A DNA stretch of 64,000 nucleotides from positions 1,088,001 through 1,152,000 of the forward strand of contig CAVZYA010000002.1 in the NCBI GenBank assembly GCA_963779415.1, given 5' to 3'. This DNA comes from an uncultured Acidobacteriota bacterium (GTDB lineage Bacteria; Acidobacteriota; Thermoanaerobaculia; UBA5066). The translations under genes and the position numbers were made by a program. Each line of letters starts with the position of its first letter. Within the stretch, counting starts at the first letter, position 1. Under the pieces are notes generated by a model. It did not search any database, was not told the origin of the DNA, and saw nothing but the letters and a program-made list of their open reading frames with translations. Below, piece after piece: positions 13,181 through 21,129 of this stretch.

Positions 13181-14842
13181 CTACGGGGATTCCCGGAGGA
13201 TCGACTCCGCTGCGCGGATGCCGGAATCCTGGGCGTCCTCGAAGAGCGGAAGGCCGGTGTCCGCGTGGGCGAACCGGACGCCGCCGAGCGGCTCGTCCGG
13301 AAGCCGCCGCACCGGGCTGGCCAGGAAGCCGGGCGCGGGGCGGAGCATCGCGTGCCCCCAGCGAGCCACGTCGAGACGCGTCACGAGCCCCGGAAGGTCG
13401 GGATGTGCACGCGAGAGGTCCGCGAGGACGGCCGCGGCGATCTCCTCCCACGTCATGCCGAATAGCTTCTCGCGCGCCGCCTTCGGCGCTTCGCCCGCGA
13501 AGGAGTGATACCAGGTGAATACCGTCGGCCCGTGGTCGCTTCCGGTCTGGTGCCCTGTCTGATGAGTAGCCACGACGTAGCCGAGCGACTTCGAGTCGTA
13601 GAGGACGTTGTCCCAGGCCAGCTCCACCCGGCGCTCCTTCGGCCGGCCGGAGAGGGTCAGGTTCGCCACGATCCACGGGGCATAGCCCATGTCTCGGAGA
13701 AAGGCGGGGGGCGCCTCCCGCCACGGGGCGAGAACGCGCGCCGCGACGAACTTCGGGAGGGCGAGGACGGCGTCGCGCGCTTCGACATCGACGACTTCGT
13801 TCTTCGCGGCGTCGAGGTACCGGACGAGGACCGGAGCGCCCGGCGTCCTCCGGGGGACGACGTCGAAGACCAGAGCCGACGGGACCATCCGGCCGGCCGC
13901 CGACTTCGAAAGGTGATGGACGAGCCTTCCGTTCCCCTCGGGCCAGGTCAGGAACGGGGCGGGCTCCTCGTCGGGAGCGTTCCCCGCCATCCGGGCGGCG
14001 TAATAGAAGATTCCTGCCCACGCGGAGATCTCGTCGAGGCTTCCGGCGTAGTCGTCGCGGCAGCCGTAGTCGGCCAGCCAGAGGAGGCGCGGCGAGTCGA
14101 ATCCCTTCGACCGCATCCAGTCGCCCATCGTCAGCCGGTCGAGGGAGGTGAACTCCGCGTCCTCGGAGGAGCCGCGGGTCGGGACGGCGAAGGCCCGCCG
14201 GCCTTTCGCATCCCTCATCGCCGCGAAGGCGGCCATCTCGGCCTCGAAGCGGTTCAGCTGCATGAGGTCCGCCGGCGAGGCGCCGGCGTGCGGGTAGAGC
14301 CCGGTGTGCCACTCGAAGCCGAAGAAGAGCCGCTCCTCCGGCTCCCGGCAGAGCATCTCCTCGGCGAAGAGAGGCCGGCCGTTCCCGTCGTGCCCCGTGA
14401 TCGCGCCGATCTCGGCAAGGAGCGTCTCTATTGCCGGATTCGGATAGGCGGGGACGGGGACGTAGTGCGCGCCCCACGGGAAGCGAGAGACGTCGTTTCC
14501 GCCTGAGATCGCCGTCCCGCCCGGCTCGGCCTCCAGGTCGTAGAGGCGGAAGTCCGTCTTGCCCGCTCGCGCCAGAGTCCACGCGGCGGAAAGCCCGGAG
14601 ACTCCTCCCCCGAGAATCGCCGTGCCGACGCGCTCCGTCCGGACGGCCGGGCGCGCGAGGAGGTCGGCGCTCCAGAGCCGGTGGCCGAGCGCCTCGTCCG
14701 GGACGACGAAACCCCCGTCGAACCGGAGCGCCCGCTCGTCCCTTCGCCCGCAGGAAGCGAGGGCGGAAGCGAGCGCCGCCGCGGCTCCCGTTCCCATCAG
14801 TGCGACGATCGCGTCGCGCCGCGTCAGTCGAACTTCTTCCAC
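13181..14842 (-). CDS. FAD-dependent oxidoreductase (amine oxidase/protoporphyrinogen oxidase-like) with Tat-lipoprotein signal
   Basis: TRRDAI twin-arginine motif and LASC lipobox; GGGVSG dinucleotide fold; PWGAHY, YGCRDDY and RWGHAM motifs. Confidence 0.8.
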   Translation of the reverse strand: MEEVRLTRRDAIVALMGTGAAAALASALASCGRRDERALRFDGGFVVPDEALGHRLWSADLLARPAVRTERVGTAILGGGVSGLSAAWTLARAGKTDFRLYDLEAEPGGTAISGGNDVSRFPWGAHYVPVPAYPNPAIETLLAEIGAITGHDGNGRPLFAEEMLCREPEERLFFGFEWHTGLYPHAGASPADLMQLNRFEAEMAAFAAMRDAKGRRAFAVPTRGSSEDAEFTSLDRLTMGDWMRSKGFDSPRLLWLADYGCRDDYAGSLDEISAWAGIFYYAARMAGNAPDEEPAPFLTWPEGNGRLVHHLSKSAAGRMVPSALVFDVVPRRTPGAPVLVRYLDAAKNEVVDVEARDAVLALPKFVAARVLAPWREAPPAFLRDMGYAPWIVANLTLSGRPKERRVELAWDNVLYDSKSLGYVVATHQTGHQTGSDHGPTVFTWYHSFAGEAPKAAREKLFGMTWEEIAAAVLADLSRAHPDLPGLVTRLDVARWGHAMLRPAPGFLASPVRRLPDEPLGGVRFAHADTGLPLFEDAQDSGIRAAESILRESP

Positions 14843-16344
14843 TCGCTCTCGTACATCCGGACGAGGACCTGGTCGTTCAGCCGGTTCACCGGCGCCTCGA
14901 CGCGTGAGATGTCGGGCCCGAAGACGAAGAGCGAAGCGAGAGTCTCGGACGAGAGGGCACGGAGGCCCGGCAGGACCCGCGTCGGCGCCTCGAACGGACG
15001 CGGCGCCGCGAGGACGTAGCCCCAGACGCCGAACGACGGCACCGTCATCTGGTAGGGGTGGACGAAGAAGCCGGCCGCCTCGATCGTCCGCGCGACGCTC
15101 CAGAACGAGGTCCGTGCAAAGAGGGGAGACGTCGACTGGACCGCCATGGCGCCCTGCGGGTCGAGGCGACGCTTCGCGAGCGAGTAGAAGCGCGTCGTGT
15201 AGAGCTTTCCGACCGAATAGCTGTTCGGGTCGGGGAAGTCGACGAGGATCAGGTCGAAGAGGTCCTTTCCCTCCTCGAGCCAGACCATCGCGTCCTCGTT
15301 GATCACCCGGACGCGCGGGTCGGCGAGGGAATCCCGGTTCAGGGCGGTGAAGAGGGGATGCGTCCGCGCGAGCGTCGTCATCGCGGGGTCGAGGTCGACC
15401 AGGGTGACCCGCTCGACTTCAGGGTGCTTGAGCACCTCGCGGACGGCGAGTCCGTCGCCGCCGCCGAGGACGAGGACTCTCCTCGCGTCGGGGACGACGC
15501 CGAACGCCGGGTGGACGAGCGCCTCGTGGTACCGGTACTCGTCGACGGAGGAGAACTGGAGGTGTCCGTTCAGGAAGAGCTGGAAGCCGGCCCGGTTCCG
15601 CGTCACGACGATCCTCTGGTACGGCGTCGACTTTGCGACGATCACCTCGTCGGCGTACTGCGTCTCCTCGGCCATGGTCGTCAGCCGGTCGGCTGAGGCG
15701 AACGCGCCGAGGAGGAGAAGGACGACGAGCCCGGCGCGCGCGAGGAGCCCTCCGGAGGGGCCGATCTGGCGCTGGAAGAGCCGGATCGACCAGAAGGCGA
15801 CCGCCGCGTTCAGGAGGCCGAAGAGGACCGACGTCCGGACGAGCCCGAGGCGGGGGACAAGGACGAGCGGGAAGAGAACCGAGGCCGCGAGGGAGCCGAG
15901 ATAATCAAACGTCAGGACCTGCGAGACGAGGTCCTTGAAGACGACCGAGTCCTTGAGGAGCCGCATCAGGAGGGGGATCTCGACGCCGACGAGGATCCCG
16001 ACGAGGAGGACGATCCCGAAGAAGACAGGCGAAAACCACCGGGGAGACGAGAAGGCGAAGAAGAGCGCGGGCGCCGAGAGGCCGCCGATCAGCGCGACGG
16101 CGGTCTCGGCCTCGACGAAGCGGCGGGCCACGTTTCGGGCGACGAAGCGCGTCAGGAACGCGCCCACGCCCATCGCCGTGAGGTAGATCCCGATGACGAG
16201 GGAGAACTGCGTGACCGAGTCGCCGAGGAGATAGCTCGCGAGCGTCCCGGCGACGAGTTCGTAGACGAGCCCGCACGAGGCGATGACGAGGACCGTCAGG
16301 TAGACGGGCCCCGGCCGGACGCGGGCGGTCTCCGGAGAGGTCAA
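14824..16344 (-). CDS. speE: Membrane-domain polyamine aminopropyltransferase (spermidine synthase-like)
   Basis: About 7 N-terminal TM helices (CGLVYEL), TPYQRI, DEYRYHEALVHP, VLGGGDG and DFPDP motifs; TTG start at 16344 is inferred. Confidence 0.85.
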   Translation of the reverse strand: MTSPETARVRPGPVYLTVLVIASCGLVYELVAGTLASYLLGDSVTQFSLVIGIYLTAMGVGAFLTRFVARNVARRFVEAETAVALIGGLSAPALFFAFSSPRWFSPVFFGIVLLVGILVGVEIPLLMRLLKDSVVFKDLVSQVLTFDYLGSLAASVLFPLVLVPRLGLVRTSVLFGLLNAAVAFWSIRLFQRQIGPSGGLLARAGLVVLLLLGAFASADRLTTMAEETQYADEVIVAKSTPYQRIVVTRNRAGFQLFLNGHLQFSSVDEYRYHEALVHPAFGVVPDARRVLVLGGGDGLAVREVLKHPEVERVTLVDLDPAMTTLARTHPLFTALNRDSLADPRVRVINEDAMVWLEEGKDLFDLILVDFPDPNSYSVGKLYTTRFYSLAKRRLDPQGAMAVQSTSPLFARTSFWSVARTIEAAGFFVHPYQMTVPSFGVWGYVLAAPRPFEAPTRVLPGLRALSSETLASLFVFGPDISRVEAPVNRLNDQVLVRMYESEWKKFD

Positions 16345-16354
16345 GAGGCCGGGC

Positions 16355-16580
16355 TCAGCCGCCCGTGACGCTCGCCGCGATGATGATCGACGATCGCGAT
16401 GATGATCGACCCGATCACGATCCCGAGGGCGATGTTCTGGTCCTCCTCCATCTCCTTCTTGATCGAGAAGGGGAGGACCTTCGGAAGGATGGCGAAAAAG
16501 ATCGAGAAGATGACGATCCCGATGACCGAAAAGATGATCGTCGAGACGACCTGATGCCCGTGGAGATTCCACCAGTCCAT
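16355..16580 (-). CDS. DUF350 small membrane protein (1-nt frameshift near the C-terminus)
   Basis: KEMEEDQNIALGIVIGSIII motif; the corrected frame ends IIIAASVTGG-TGA at 16355. Confidence 0.75.
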
Positions 16581-16747
16581 TACTTACCTCCGCTCCAGAA
16601 GTGGTAGCTGCGCCAGCCGCCGGCGTTCCGCGCCGTAGCCGGCAGGGTGTTTTTCTGCGTCCCGACCGAAGCGTCCCAGCCGCTGAACGCCGCCCAGGCG
16701 TAAAGGACGAGGAGCCCGGTTCCGAGGGCCCGGAAGATTCGTCTCAT
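16580..16747 (-). CDS. 55-aa small membrane/secreted peptide missing from the ORF track
   Basis: MRRIFRALGTGLLVLYAWAAFSGWDASVGTQKNTLPATARNAGGWRSYHFWSGGK; ATGA overlap upstream and TAATG overlap downstream. Confidence 0.75.
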   Translation of the reverse strand: MRRIFRALGTGLLVLYAWAAFSGWDASVGTQKNTLPATARNAGGWRSYHFWSGGK

Positions 16748-18778
16748 GAGTCATCTCCGCTCTCTTCTTCCGAGTCCTTTTCGGACCCCGTGGAAGAGAA
16801 GTCGCTCTCGGACCACCGCCGCCCTTCGAAGGCGGCGTGCGAGATCAGGAGGGAGAGTGGCCCGCAGAAGAGGAGGAAGAGGACGAGCGACGAGGTGGAA
16901 GAGCCGCGGGACTCCGCTCGTCAGCTTCACGCGGAACGACGGCGGGGGATTCGGCGAGTCGGTCTCCGGCTCGAGCCTGAGGACGTATCGCCCGGCCGGG
17001 AGGCGCGAGATCCACGTCGTGTGCGCCTGGCTCCCCTCGCTCCACTTTTCGCCGCCGTCCACGCCGGAGTAGCGGTCCGAGAGGAGGTAGAACGAATGGA
17101 CCTCGCCCGTCCCCTCGGCGATCAGGTCGGCCCCGGCACCCACCCAGTTGTTGTTCGTCGCCGCGAAGAAGTCGGCCTTCATGTTCGTCCGGCGCGTCGT
17201 CTCGAACGGCTCGCTGATGAGGACGCGTTCGGCGGCCCCCGTGGCCTGCGCGGTCCAGCTCCCGGACGGGGCCTCCGCCGTCCCCCGCTCGGCCCAGATC
17301 CGGTTCTTCGGGTCGACGAGATCGAAGGTCTTGTCGAGGACCACTTTCCGCGGCGCGAAGAGCGTCGCGACGACGAAGATGCCGATTGCGACCACGCCGA
17401 GGATTCCCGCCAGCCGCCACCAGAGATGCGAACGGCCGGCCTCGGGCCACGGCTGGCAGGCGCCGACTCCGGTCGGGGCGGGGAGCGGCTCCTTCAGCTT
17501 GAGTCCCGCCTCGATCTCCTCCTTCGGGACATAGACCCCTTCCGTCCAGTTGACCTCTTCGTCCGCCCCCTCCTTGGAGAGCATCCGTGGGGGAGCGACG
17601 AAGTCGACGGCGAGGGTCGTCTCCCCCTTCGAGACGGTCCAGTAGAACTCGCCGAGAACGGCCGCGACCGACGCGGGGTTTCGCGTGAAGATCCGGTAGC
17701 GGGCGCCGCGATATGTCGCGTAGCGCGGGCCTTCCACGACTTCCCCCGCGGCCACCGGGGCGAGGAGCGTGTGATGCCCGTTCGACTCGGCGAGCCAGTG
17801 ATACGCCTCGATCTTCGTCTCCTTCAGGAGGTACTCCGTCCAGAAATAGTCGGTCCCGCCCGAGTTCGTAGTCTTCAGGACGGCCCCGAGGAGGACGTAC
17901 GGGTGTCCGTTCAGGGTCCCTTCGCTCCCGAGCGGGAGGCGCGGCCGGAACGGAACCTCGGAGAGCTTTTCGAGGACCTCGAACTTCGTCGGAGGGCCGC
18001 CGGTCTCCTTCGGTGAGCCGAGGAGCGATCCGCACTAGGGGCAGGCGATCCGGACGGTCGCGGAGGGGTCCTTCAGCGAGAGCGCGCCGCCGCAGTTCGG
18101 GCAGTTGAGCGCCTGCGCGCTCGCCGCGACCTTCCGCTCCGTCCACGCCGCAAGCCCCTCGATGCCGAGGTCGGAAAGCTCGACCTTCCGTCCGACGAAG
18201 AAGCCGTCGAGGCCGGGGTCGTCTCCGTAGTCGAGGGTCCCGAGCGAGCCGTCGCCTCCGGAGATGTCCGCGTAGTGAAAGACGGCGCCCGGGGGCGCGA
18301 CGAAGGGAAGCTCCCCTTCCGCCGAGATGTAGGCCGCGCTCCGCCGCTCGGCGACGGTGAAGAGACCGTACGCCCCGAGGTTCAGACGCTCGCCCGGATG
18401 CAGCTCCTTCCATTCCGGGACGGGCGGCGGCGGGAGCGGCAGCATCATCCAGAAGGCCCCCTGCGCCTCGGCGAGCCACGCGTAGCCCCCCGATTCGAAG
18501 GCGACGTGCCATTCGTCCCACGTCCCCGACCCCGTCGAGAGCTGAATCCGTCCCACGATACGGAACGGCTTCGTCCCGTACTTCGGCCGCGCCGACATAC
18601 CGACCTTGAAGGGAGACGACGTCGGCACCAGCTCGGCGACCTTGCCGATCGCTTCGAGGTCCACTCCCTTCCGGGCCACGGCCGAACGGCACTGGGGGCA
18701 GACGGTGACGAGAGAGGAGCCCGCGGAGAAAAGGATCTCCTCACCGCAGTTGGGACACTGGGTCGCCCGGGCGCTCAA
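16744..18778 (-). CDS. DUF4178 domain protein with CxxC zinc ribbons (in-frame TAG at 18035-18037 and a C-terminal frameshift)
   Basis: CPNCG..CPQC, CPNCG..CP*CG; WDEW, GELPF, WTEYLL and GEFYW motifs; corrected C-terminus FEGRRWSESD ends at TGA 16744. Confidence 0.75.
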
Positions 18779-18839
18779 GGTGGGGGAATCTTACGGTACG
18801 TCCGTGCGGCGCTGTGGGAAGGCGGGAGACAATCGGCGT

Positions 18840-19436
18840 GTGAGAGACCGCGCGGCGTCCGTTCTGCCCTGGATTCTCGTGGCGCTCCTCTCCGCGGCAC
18901 TCGCCGCCGTCCTTGCGCGCCGGGGAGGGGGGACGGCGCGCGTCTCGGCGGCTCCTGTCGTCACGGTCGTGAACAACGTCCTGAAGCTCGCGACCGTCGA
19001 GATCGAGGTGTCGGACGTCCTTCGCGTCGAGGAGGTGAAGACGTTCGTCGTCGTGGACCTGCCGAAGAGCGCGATCCTCCGTCTGAAGGGGCGGGTCTCC
19101 GGGGGCTTCGACCTGTCGCGCGGCTCCTCGGTGAATGCGGACGAGTCGGCGCGCCGGCTCCGCGTGACGCTCCCGCACGCTTCCATCCTCTCCGTCGATC
19201 CCGTCGTCGAGTGGTTCGACGAGAAGAGCGGCTGGCTCAACCCGATCACGCCGGACGACCGGACACGCTGGCTCTCGTGGGCTCGCCTCTCGGTCGTCGC
19301 GGCCGCCCGCCGGGCGGGCATCGTCTCGAAGTCCGAGGAGCGCGCGATTTCCCTCGTCCGGGAAGCCGCCGCGGCTTACGGCTGGACCGCCGAGGTCACC
19401 TTCGTGGACGCCCCGGCACCCACGCCCATCCCGTGA
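18840..19436 (+). CDS. DUF4230-like protein
   Basis: N-terminal TM anchor; KLATVE, GRVSGGFDLS, VTLPHASIL and DEKSGWLN pattern. Confidence 0.65.
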   Translation: MRDRAASVLPWILVALLSAALAAVLARRGGGTARVSAAPVVTVVNNVLKLATVEIEVSDVLRVEEVKTFVVVDLPKSAILRLKGRVSGGFDLSRGSSVNADESARRLRVTLPHASILSVDPVVEWFDEKSGWLNPITPDDRTRWLSWARLSVVAAARRAGIVSKSEERAISLVREAAAAYGWTAEVTFVDAPAPTPIP

Positions 19437-19452: not shown

Positions 19453-19716
19453 TCAGCGGGATCGGTACACGTCTCCCCGGTGACCGACCGTGAGAACGAG
19501 GACGAGGAGGACGTCGTCGTGGATTTCGTAGACAACCCTAAAGTCGCCGACCCGGATCCGCCAGCGGTCACGTGAACCGGCCAGCTTTCTTACGCCGGGC
19601 GGCCGTGGTTCAACGGCAAGAGCTTCGATCTGAGGCTGGAGACGGGTTCGGACGGAGACGGGCAGCTTCAGGAAGGAGCGTTCGGCCGCAGGGCGAAACG
19701 CGATCCGGTAGTGCAC
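19453..19716 (-). CDS. relE: RelE/ParE family toxin
   Basis: PRPPGVRKLAG..WRIRVGDFRVVYEI..VGHRGDVY. Confidence 0.9.
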   Translation of the reverse strand: MHYRIAFRPAAERSFLKLPVSVRTRLQPQIEALAVEPRPPGVRKLAGSRDRWRIRVGDFRVVYEIHDDVLLVLVLTVGHRGDVYRSR

Positions 19717-19720
19717 GCCC

Positions 19721-19984
19721 CTACTTCAGCCCTGCTCTCTTCTTGACCGTCGTCCATGGGACGTTCTTTCCCTTCTCGCGAAGCGCCGCGTCGGCAGCCG
19801 CGTTGTCGAGCCGATCTTCTTCCTCCTCGGAAAGCTGCTCGAGGCGTTCGAAGTCGGCGACGGGAACGAGGGCGGCAATCGCCTTTCCCCGACGTTGCAG
19901 GATGATCCGCTCTCCGCGGTAGGCGACACGATTCACGGTGTCGGAGAAAGACTCCCGGGCTTTCGATGCGGTGAGCCGTGTCAT
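19721..19984 (-). CDS. Phd/YefM family antitoxin
   Basis: ASKARESFSDTVNRV..GERIILQRRGKAIAALVP; directly upstream of the toxin. Confidence 0.9.
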   Translation of the reverse strand: MTRLTASKARESFSDTVNRVAYRGERIILQRRGKAIAALVPVADFERLEQLSEEEEDRLDNAAADAALREKGKNVPWTTVKKRAGLK

Positions 19985-20163: not shown

Positions 20164-21129
20164 TCAGGAGTCGTCGAACTCGTCGCTAACCTCATGGAGT
20201 TCTTCCTCTCGTCCGTGAAATCGCCGTCGGACTTCGGAGTCGATATCGAGAGGGTCCCCCCACGCTTTATGGAGGGACTCGTTCGGTCCATCCCAAAACG
20301 CTTGGATTTCGTCGTCGTTCTCGAAGCAGCGCAGTAGGGCCTCGTTATCAAGAAATCGGTGCCACGCATGGCTAGCTATTAGTTCAGCCTGGAACGAGAG
20401 ACGAAAGGATTCGCGGACTGGATCGTCCGTGGTCGGTTCTTCCCTCTTTACGAGATCCACCGGATTCTTCAAATGTTCGACATGACCCCTGAGTCGATAA
20501 AGGGCCTTCAAGAGCGATCTATGCTCTTCACGTTTCCCTATCAGGTATTGACCTCTGTGAATGAAGTCTCTTTCTCCACGGCCCTGTCTCGTTGCGAGCA
20601 ATCCATCTAGGGACCGAATTGCGAGGTGCAGCCTCTGCGCCGCGTAGTCCGCCCTCATCAGAGCGTCCATGGCCAGGAGGCCCATCCGGACCCTGTAGAA
20701 ATCATCGTGTGGGCGCATGACGTCTCCGACGAGGTTCACGTGTCGCGCCGCGAATTCGAAGACTTCCTTTCGAAGGGTGGGGAAGTAGACACGCGGTGTA
20801 GCGACGTACCGAGGCCATTCCTGAAACTGCTCAAGCCTTCCGCTGTGGCCGAGGCAGTAATACCCTGCCTGAGCCTTCGGCACGGACCCGAAACACGCTA
20901 GCGAGATGAGGTGTTGAAGGCGTCGCATCAGCTTGAAAGGTTCCGACGCCGCGTACTCTCCCGGATACCACGTCCTGGCGAGAAGTACGACGAGCGTGCT
21001 CTCTGAGATGGACTTGGCCGTCAGGTCGCCGAGGTTTCGCTTCCAGAACTCGTCAACTTCTCCTGGAAGCTTTTCGAGCAGCCAGCAACCTTCGCCGATT
21101 CCGAGAGGCGCCGGACCAAGACTAGACAC
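20164..21129 (-). CDS. Putative HEPN (Apea-like) domain protein
   Basis: RSLDGLL helix followed by YRLRGHVEH (Rx4H); visibly more AT-rich codons than the flanks. Confidence 0.55.
   Translation of the reverse strand: MSSLGPAPLGIGEGCWLLEKLPGEVDEFWKRNLGDLTAKSISESTLVVLLARTWYPGEYAASEPFKLMRRLQHLISLACFGSVPKAQAGYYCLGHSGRLEQFQEWPRYVATPRVYFPTLRKEVFEFAARHVNLVGDVMRPHDDFYRVRMGLLAMDALMRADYAAQRLHLAIRSLDGLLATRQGRGERDFIHRGQYLIGKREEHRSLLKALYRLRGHVEHLKNPVDLVKREEPTTDDPVRESFRLSFQAELIASHAWHRFLDNEALLRCFENDDEIQAFWDGPNESLHKAWGDPLDIDSEVRRRFHGREEELHEVSDEFDDS

Follow-up and report, generated by a model that had tools for sequence, protein, structure and literature searches.

A widespread envelope operon couples a membrane-fused aminopropyltransferase to a peptide with a candidate acceptor lysine

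Introduction

'Spermidine synthases' fused to a membrane domain are very common, and annotation treats them as housekeeping enzymes of polyamine metabolism. What does such an enzyme modify when its gene is coupled to those of a small peptide and a lipoprotein flavoenzyme, as in the minus-strand operon of the 64,000-nucleotide stretch of Acidobacteriota DNA analysed here (the window)? Operons that join a 7TM-spermine/spermidine-synthase with YjfL/DUF350 and DUF4178, in one variant together with AdoMet decarboxylase and polyamine oxidase, are described in the available text of Ravi et al. 2024 (PMC11237479), which suggests 'aminopropylation of other substrates' and cites Li et al. 2019. In so far as that text goes, operons of this type, and a substrate that is not putrescine, have been put forward in print before, and the idea is not new. 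In the literature covered, which takes in few of the subscription journals, no paper names the peptide, its lysine or the product of the SpeE enzyme. We find that the best pointer to what SpeE modifies is an invariant C-terminal lysine of the peptide.

Results

Gene order and assembly state

As read from the sequence, five coupled genes follow one another in the order DUF4178 protein, 55-aa peptide, DUF350 protein, membrane SpeE and flavoenzyme (Table 1). Their junctions are an ATGA overlap (DUF4178/peptide), a TAATG overlap (peptide/DUF350), a 10-nt gap (DUF350/SpeE) and a 19-nt overlap (SpeE/flavoenzyme), in agreement with the earlier note, which had listed five minus-strand genes that overlap or nearly abut. 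Its gene list stands; overlooked were three defects of the genes as assembled, namely an in-frame TAG at 18035-18037 of the DUF4178 gene, where an orthologue has CPYC, an extra base near 16888 of the same gene and another near 16390 of the DUF350 gene, the extra bases being judged against the intact locus L006 and the last of them absent from relatives' contigs. Because neighbouring genes carry many 1-nt insertions of like kind, all three are probably long-read assembly errors. A longer start that would yield a 582-aa SpeE was rejected, the extension being a shadow frame of DUF350. The divergent neighbour gene of the operon is DUF4230, and a scan for promoters and terminators gave results at chance level.

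Table 1. Genes of the operon, with positions in the window
Feature	Position	Strand	Basis
DUF4178 protein	16744..18778	-	Pfam PF13785 twice; translation; intact orthologue L006
55-aa single-TM peptide	16580..16747	-	K-blind extraction, conserved K55; no Pfam family above cut-off
DUF350 (YjfL-type), two-TM, ~75 aa	16355..16580	-	Pfam PF03994 above cut-off; frames
506-aa membrane aminopropyltransferase (SpeE)	14824..16344	-	NCBIfam PRK03612, AlphaFold, fold matches
553-aa Tat-type lipoprotein flavoenzyme	13181..14842	-	Pfam PF01593 + PF13450, model, fold matches

The DUF4178 protein consists of two Zn-ribbon/DUF4178 repeats, a TM, a middle domain, a second TM and a short acidic tail. Its orthologues are ~680 aa long, and the intact one in L006 (682 aa) has two TM and four CxxC motifs, as expected from the Zn ribbons seen earlier; the repeats would lie in the cytoplasm and the domain between the TMs in the periplasm. 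A neighbourhood survey, which the earlier note had proposed, finds the partner genes co-conserved: among 80 loci the flavoenzyme is present in 60, DUF350 in 57 and DUF4178 in 55. A band-7 gene occurs in 5 of the 80.

The membrane enzyme and its predicted sidedness

SpeE matches NCBIfam PRK03612/NF002956 over its full length (residues 14-504; 655.7 bits, cut-off 472), and falls below the cut-offs of canonical spermidine synthases (137.9 vs 249.55 and 174.9 vs 260 for TIGR00417/PRK00811). When aligned to solved aminopropyltransferases it retains the donor and catalytic residues, and all 75 sequences agree at Q243, Q263, Y272, H273, D297 (in GGGDG), D317, D351, D369, D372 and Q403. We take loss of the GGGD aspartate, here D297, to be the mark of conversion to a methyltransferase, and D372 is presumably the distal-amine acid of the canonical enzymes. 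Methylation had been offered as an option; since every residue for aminopropyl transfer is kept, with GGGDG and the donor-binding acids invariant throughout, it is unlikely. The AdoMet decarboxylase that an aminopropyltransferase requires is encoded in the genome.

The AlphaFold model (pLDDT 88) contains seven TM helices, the number previously estimated. Residues 7-195 adopt the six-TM fold of an MFS half-transporter (Z 15-18, rmsd ~3 to single MFS halves), of which the chain holds only one, and four acidic residues of the TM helices (E29, E80, E122 and D147) are invariant. Residues 224-503, after the seventh helix, form a spermidine-synthase fold with Z 28-36 to true aminopropyltransferases (1uir: Z 35.9, rmsd 2.2 over 273 residues); the closest solved enzymes, those of Thermus and Pyrobaculum and thermospermine synthase, act on polyamines. 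Mean K+R counts are 1.3/2.9/3.2/3.2 in the predicted inside loops vs 0/0.9/1.8/1.0 outside. Given an MFS half followed by one helix, and the matching charge bias, the catalytic domain appears from the model to lie outside the cytoplasmic membrane, on the side of the peptide tail and the flavoenzyme.

In the human enzyme the putrescine cavity is capped by Trp28 (PMC12812037). Compared by sequence offset from Q243 and by secondary structure rather than by coordinates, its equivalent in SpeE is T222 (Thr in 67/75), which the model places in a linker helix with no hairpin, and by this measure SpeE has no Trp28-type cap. K380 (GKLY) was considered as a family-specific carboxylate anchor and rejected, as two solved polyamine synthases have a Lys in the same stretch. 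Of 401 genomes sampled from one phylum, that of Myxococcus (one of them, G201, unpublished), 199 have a membrane-fused spermidine synthase above cut-off, as does C. glutamicum, one of the controls.

A displaced speD

That the operon lacks speD, as the earlier note held, is literally true and nevertheless misleading. A genome-wide search, which had been proposed at the time, finds one on the same strand ~59 kb downstream, outside the window (G000:C2:1041976-1042296), as an open frame that matches PF02675 and TIGR03330 above cut-off. This displaced speD stands behind a sixth gene, for a His-rich membrane protein. In L007, L014 and L019 a speD block comes immediately after the flavoenzyme gene, and 33 of the 55 DUF4178-containing loci carry speD (23 upstream, 10 downstream); its distance in this genome is a local split or rearrangement. 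An identity as a 'speD-less variant' is therefore rejected, and the absence of speD no longer serves as an argument against ordinary spermidine synthesis. The three other SpdS-like genes of the genome are membrane fusions without GGGDG, so that the operon SpeE is the only canonical SpeD partner found. The genome, which is 92% complete, gave no match to the arginase/agmatinase family.

The peptide and its terminal lysine

The 55-aa peptide has a single TM and a Gly/aromatic tail that ends in GGK (WSGGK in this copy, with the K55 codon at 16585-16583). Its sequence predicts an N-in/C-out orientation, and 43 of 51 copies have a charge bias for N-in. It matches no Pfam family above cut-off and only unnamed clusters in the Atlas. 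The peptide had been listed before, and its terminal lysine missed: extraction blind to K gives a C-terminal Lys in 53 of 55 loci, K55 is the sole invariant column among the 51 Lys-ending rows, and the background in the same genome is 7.6% of 1026 long ORFs. Arg stands at the C-terminus in one of 54 picks, visibly a wrong ORF. On sequence grounds K55 would be the likeliest aminopropyl acceptor.

Like tails occur on unrelated scaffolds, including proteins of 61 aa (..GGHK) and 78 aa (..GPESGK), a 510-aa lipoprotein (..GPSSGK) and DUF4247 proteins, 17 of 35 of which have a Lys tail. In a reverse search that started from the sister tail GGGPxxGK, and not from the WSGGK of this window, a membrane SpeE lies downstream in 21 of 55 true-stop loci vs 0 of 25 controls with TGG (a Trp codon), on the same strand and 36-1888 nt from the tail (Fisher p 9e-5, the loci not being independent); where at least 2 kb is available downstream, the counts are 14/28 vs 0/18. 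The tail is not exclusive: real proteins end in this way with no SpeE nearby (L099, L119, L126, L141 and L142, for example), as do 11 of the 17 DUF4247 Lys-tail loci in the available DNA, mostly short contigs. Where the SpeE gene stands alone, a DUF4178-GGK peptide-DUF350 cassette is found elsewhere in all five such genomes (5/5). A predicted complex of SpeE with the peptide scored 0.11 against a mark of 0.32, and is evidence neither way.

Flavoenzyme and His-rich protein

The N-terminus of the flavoenzyme carries TRRDAI and the lipobox LASC, and approximates the F-L-K of the Tat consensus. Conservation across 41 orthologues is 90% or higher at R8, R9 and C31, the twin Arg is present in 42 of 44 orthologue N-termini and a strict lipobox pattern in 28 of 44, which bears out the twin-arginine signal and lipobox previously assigned to this FAD enzyme. 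The model (pLDDT 88.5) has the flavin amine-oxidase fold (MAO/PAO/LAAO/PPO), consistent with PF01593, and matches many members of the superfamily at Z 20-28. The top rank (Z 27-28) is shared by MAO, putrescine oxidase, phytoene desaturase (PDS) and LAAO, and PAO/Fms1 follow at Z ~22; identities are 11-22%, and the fold does not specify a substrate. A single-sequence PDB search returned nothing. No match to the flavoenzyme came up in any locus of the reverse search, and it is therefore not core.

The His-rich protein is polytopic. Among loci that offer enough sequence it accompanies the flavoenzyme gene in 25 of 46, and none of the 15 loci lacking a flavoenzyme has it. It matches nothing in Pfam, NCBIfam or PDB sequences and only unnamed clusters in the Atlas; it is possibly a metalloenzyme that acts on lipids.

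Discussion

The operon is probably one not of ordinary spermidine synthesis but of extracytoplasmic, membrane-coupled aminopropylation and oxidation, much as the earlier note had envisaged for an exported substrate. We consider it an even chance that the terminal lysine of the peptide is aminopropylated outside the cytoplasm, with the oxidase erasing or oxidising the mark. SpeD, by its established chemistry, would make dcSAM in the cytoplasm, its gene being present in this genome and, as a rule, part of the cluster. The MFS half of SpeE, probably as a homodimer or with DUF350, would pass dcSAM out and MTA back. The outward domain would then add an aminopropyl group (+57.058 Da, possibly repeated) to the epsilon-amine of the C-terminal Lys; here the topology is predicted and the catalytic residues and tail conservation are seen, and the chemistry is what these suggest. 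The Tat-exported flavoenzyme, as an accessory, might remove the group oxidatively or turn it into an aldehyde. A scaffolding or reading role would fall to DUF4178 and DUF350, and the published linkage to PspA and band-7 suggests an envelope-stress response as the probable setting. Against the transport step, a half-MFS need not transport anything; against the Lys-tail reading count the retention of D372 and the polyamine-acting solved relatives, and a conserved terminal Lys might serve just as well for binding, sorting or regulation.

Is the modification confined to this peptide? Somewhat short of an even chance, in our estimate, it is a widespread and reversible one, placed outside the cytoplasm on the Gly-rich Lys tails of unrelated membrane-anchored proteins, in which the half-MFS fusion exports its own dcSAM, the flavoenzyme is eraser or oxidiser and the His-rich metalloenzyme belongs to the pathway. 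GGK micro-peptides, DUF4247 proteins and long lipoproteins would be the tail carriers, a part that shares the tentative standing of the whole.

A different envelope amine may be the acceptor, such as a lipid head group, a peptidoglycan diamino acid or an external polyamine, with the Lys peptide docking in the site as subunit, pseudo-substrate or regulator. The same topology and open pocket would fit it, as would a possibly lipid-acting His-rich protein that keeps to flavoenzyme loci, and the available text of PMC11237479 goes only as far as 'aminopropylation of other substrates'. It does not by itself explain why scaffolds with no relation to one another should converge on a flexible Gly tail, one that ends moreover in the sole residue with a free aliphatic primary amine and not in Arg, and we regard it as unlikely, though a serious contender. 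Improbable is that the tail is the substrate and the catalytic domain cytoplasmic, the lysine being modified before export or kept inside. No dcSAM would then have to cross the membrane, a simpler logistics as dcSAM is cytoplasmic. In its favour too is that an ATP-grasp ligase requires cytoplasmic ATP. Such a ligase is used by DUF350-linked sister operons (available text of PMC11237479). Against this, a canonical MFS half within a set of seven helices, together with a charge bias that agrees, places the domain outside, and the predictions for the Tat oxidase and the peptide tail put them on that side as well.

Quite improbable is an ordinary polyamine synthase (of spermidine, thermospermine or aminopropylagmatine) that is anchored to a transporter and has its product turned over by the oxidase. 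Li et al. in 2019 reportedly found E. coli speE not complemented by such fusions. The domain faces outward in the model and has no Trp28-type cap, the DUF350, DUF4178 and Lys-tail partners look obligate, and arginase/agmatinase-family matches are absent; on the other side stand the NCBIfam name 'polyamine aminopropyltransferase', the best structure matches, the genome's one speD and only GGGDG enzyme found, and the M. tuberculosis orthologue, in print still 'spermidine synthase' (PMC11841054). The possibility that the peptide Lys is methylated by a SAM-dependent enzyme of spermidine-synthase fold (METTL13-like or putrescine N-methyltransferase-like) has the METTL13 C-terminal domain among the fold matches (5wcj, Z 17.7) and the non-adjacent speD in its favour, but with D297 invariant, speD co-conserved and far higher Z to true aminopropyltransferases it is very improbable.

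If the tail is indeed aminopropylated on its lysine, this would be a bacterial protein modification for which we found no published example, and it would use a SAM-derived donor outside the cytoplasm. With the Lys tail, SpeE acquires a defined candidate substrate, and the modification a defined mass shift.

Comparison with known systems

Amino-alkylation of protein lysine is known from the hypusination of eIF5A and from polyamine-modified silaffins, which are functional analogies only: an aminoalkyl group on the Lys epsilon-amine, made by other enzymes from other donors in other domains of life. Closer are the clusters of AdoMetDC, MFS-SpdSyn fusion and DUF350 reportedly described by Li, Kurihara, Kim, Liang and Michael in 2019, who are said to have proposed aminopropylation of a substrate other than putrescine and to have named none; these too reportedly fuse an MFS-like membrane domain to a SpdSyn-like domain, with speD and DUF350. 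The soluble aminopropyltransferases (T. thermophilus 1uir, T. maritima 1inl, human SRM, thermospermine synthase 6bq2) share the fold and the donor and catalytic residues, whereas SpeE is membrane-fused and predicted to face outward, and has no counterpart of their first beta-hairpin with the Trp28 cap. Their Tyr241 is Phe in SpeE, as in the Thermus enzyme, and R271, invariant in the SpeE family, is missing from five solved structures compared. SpeE is a member of NF002956/PRK03612, the membrane SpeE of Rv2601 type, a family whose name implies a polyamine product.

Like the operons in the available text of Ravi et al. 2024 (PMC11237479), this one combines 7TM-SpdS, DUF350, DUF4178 and a secreted or lipoprotein partner, one variant there including AdoMetDC and an amine oxidase. 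Unlike them it is without pspA, a CesT-PspA dyad, DUF4247+DUF2617 or a band-7/SHOCT gene; its partner is the 55-aa GGK peptide in place of DUF4247 or the Ctha_1186 lipoprotein, its DUF350 is a two-TM protein and its speD stands apart. That text is silent on the terminal Lys, the outward topology and the His-rich membrane gene. With 7TM-SpdS fusion, DUF350 and DUF4178 together, the operon fits the class described there, and is an ordinary member of a widespread envelope module.

Results

Sequence reading and Pfam matches bear out the five coupled minus-strand genes described in the earlier note (see table). The assembly interrupts the DUF4178 gene, by a TAG at 18035-18037 and an extra base near 16888, and the DUF350 gene, by an extra base near 16390. 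Given that a close relative is intact at these positions and that neighbouring genes carry dozens of 1-nt insertions relative to it, these breaks are likely, though not proven, to be assembly errors; the assembly appears indel-prone. The divergent DUF4230 gene has no counterpart in aligned loci of relatives, and the glycoside-hydrolase-like and aconitase labels in the table come from reading translations.

Genes of the operon and its surroundings (window positions unless stated)
Feature	Position	Strand	Remarks
DUF4178 gene	18778-16744	minus	Pfam PF13785 twice
55-aa ORF (peptide)	16747-16580	minus	
DUF350 gene	16580-16355	minus	Pfam PF03994
Membrane SpeE, 506 aa	16344 (TTG start) to 14824	minus	Pfam PF01564; PRK03612
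Flavoprotein, 553 aa	14842-13181	minus	Pfam PF01593/PF13450
360-aa polytopic membrane protein gene	~1042317-1043411 of the genome's own contig G000:C2 (= L001:1842-2936), outside window	minus	overlaps speD start
DUF4230 gene	18830-19436	plus	divergent from operon, ~60 bp between
Phd/YefM antitoxin and ParE-family toxin pair	19453-19984	minus	variable region between acnA and operon
321-aa ORF	20164-21129	minus	lower-GC stretch, no Pfam match
Glycoside-hydrolase-like and aconitase genes broken by 1-nt insertions relative to related locus L006	9000-13100 and 21200-23900	minus	

The membrane enzyme scores above the PRK03612 cut-off and below the canonical SpeE cut-offs (NCBIfam). Because none of its donor and catalytic residues varies across an alignment of 75 sequences (of 77 extracted plus query, excluding near-duplicates), its chemistry is most likely aminopropyl transfer rather than methylation, an option in the earlier note that is not favoured. 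Its AlphaFold model has seven TM helices, matching the earlier count of about seven. In fold comparison, residues 7-195 resemble a single half of numerous MFS transporters (Z 15-18), while residues 224-503 resemble the Thermus aminopropyltransferase (Z 35.9). Since an MFS half starts and finishes in the cytoplasm, the seventh helix is predicted to carry the catalytic domain out of it, and loop charges are consistent with this orientation. Four invariant acidic residues within the helices (E29, E80, E122 and D147) would fit the movement of a cation such as dcSAM. In the human enzyme, Trp28 closes the putrescine cavity (PMC12812037); the corresponding position, matched by offset and not by coordinates, is Thr in 67 of 75 sequences and lies within a linker helix, suggesting that the acceptor site has room for a larger molecule.

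The peptide, picked blind to its last residue as the most hydrophobic small ORF after DUF4178, has a C-terminal Lys in 53 of 55 loci (50 GGK, 1 WGK, 2 HK), the two misses being a frameshifted locus and a wrong pick. Among 1026 long ORFs of the genome, terminal Lys occurs in 7.6% and GGK in three. The peptides, predicted N-in/C-out, share ~32% column identity. In annotated plasmid loci the partner protein varies while the ending persists: GGHK on a 61-aa protein in Ralstonia wenshanensis, GPESGK on a 78-aa one in Ensifer, and GPSSGK on a 510-aa lipoprotein in Alteromonas. The latter lies on a 610-kb plasmid (L087), in a variant cluster with SpeE, speD, a toxic-anion-resistance protein, a short DUF4178 and a long DUF350.

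For a reverse test, metagenomes were scanned for GGGPxxGK followed by TRR, with TGG matches as internal control; at least 120 stretches were obtained and 80 of them, those with DNA, were analysed. A membrane-type SpeE lies downstream on the same strand in 21/55 true-stop loci versus 0/25 TGG loci. Of the tail proteins, 35 were scanned (3 from plasmids and 32 of the 39 from the reverse test), and 17 of them are DUF4247, named by Ravi et al. as the partner in the actinobacterial variant (PMC11237479); DUF4247 proteins are taken as predicted N-anchored and extracellular in PMC3726780 and PMC8854784. The same ending also occurs on several unrelated proteins, which counts against exclusivity. Where SpeE stands alone, a DUF4178-GGK peptide-DUF350 cassette is located elsewhere in 5/5 genomes tested. 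Many Myxococcaceae carry the SpeE gene apart from the cassette (L035, L036, L038, L044, L050, L053, L056-L058; further L060, L063, L066, L067, L069, L076), and two Myxococcaceae genomes have second, longer DUF350 genes with no DUF4178 nearby (L214, L215), possibly a glutathionylspermidine-synthetase-type sister operon.

The twin-arginine signal and lipobox Cys noted earlier in the flavoenzyme are conserved among orthologues. It folds like a member of the flavin amine-oxidase superfamily; monoamine oxidase, putrescine oxidase, phytoene desaturase and LAAO are level as best matches, so the fold does not fix its substrate. The flavoenzyme is accessory, since none of the 80 reverse-test loci analysed, of at least 120, has a match to it.

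The neighbourhood survey that the earlier note proposed finds the partners co-conserved: among the best 80 of 565 related loci, the flavoenzyme occurs in 60, DUF350 in 57, DUF4178 in 55 and speD in 35. In these 55 DUF4178 loci, speD lies upstream in 23 and downstream in 10, the remaining 22 having none within the stretch examined, some stretches being incomplete. The operon holds no speD, as claimed; the genome nevertheless has one above cut-off, on the same strand ~59 kb beyond the flavoenzyme gene. The block holding speD directly follows the flavoenzyme gene in related loci L007, L014 and L019, in L006 and L012 that gene is followed by the window's own downstream genes, and in a same-genus genome the block is ~39 kb away. 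From this pattern the split is real but recent, a local rearrangement. The genome's three other SpdS-like genes (L003, L004, L005; one above the NF037959 cut-off) encode long membrane fusions without GGGDG, probably methyltransferase-like or inactive.

In the window's genome, speD is preceded by the gene for a His-rich 360-aa protein whose D-x-x-H, H-F-x-x-Q-Q, N-x-x-x-H and E-E motifs are invariant; the protein has no family match in Pfam, NCBIfam or PDB sequences (unnamed clusters only in the Atlas). It occurs in 26 of the best 80 of 565 related loci, across four phyla; loci where it is paired with the flavoenzyme gene come from Acidobacteriota, Myxococcota, Planctomycetota and Bacteroidota. 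It is present in 25/46 loci with flavoenzyme and enough sequence versus 0/15 without flavoenzyme. Searched by itself in two samples of 61 genomes, it gave 14 loci, of which 7 adjoin the flavoenzyme gene and 6 speD (3 both), and 4, including the 3 most distant, neither. Judged by sequence, it is likely a membrane metalloenzyme and probably part of this operon variant, left with speD by the split.

Discussion

What was computed is which genes are present and how far they are conserved, the type of active site, the predicted sides of the membrane and the convergence of the tails. On this base we give an even chance to the likeliest reading, a module acting outside the cytoplasm: SpeD would supply dcSAM, the MFS half would deliver it outward, the catalytic domain would add an aminopropyl group to the Lys that ends the anchored peptide, the lipoprotein oxidase would then remove or oxidise that group, and DUF4178 and DUF350 would scaffold the module or read the mark. 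Transport, the residue that is modified, the role of the oxidase and the module's physiological purpose are what we infer.

That another envelope amine is the substrate, and the peptide a subunit or regulator, is a less probable, though still credible, reading. That the Lys tail is the substrate and is modified in the cytoplasm seems improbable. Ordinary polyamine synthesis is harder still to credit; MFS-SpdSyn fusions, in the work of Li et al. 2019, reportedly did not complement E. coli speE. Methylation, set against invariant donor and catalytic residues, is the most far-fetched.

A literature search returned no mention of the Lys tail. Rv2601 is still named spermidine synthase in PMC11841054, and PMC11107197 and PMC10407285 merely cite Li et al. 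2019. PMC11237479 describes 7TM-SpdS/DUF350/DUF4178 operons, one variant of which also encodes AdoMet decarboxylase and polyamine oxidase, and puts forward 'aminopropylation of other substrates', citing the same work. The window operon, with its nearest related loci in Thermoanaerobaculia and other Acidobacteriota, is a real, ordinary member of this described but unsolved system, whose long-open substrate question becomes directly testable.
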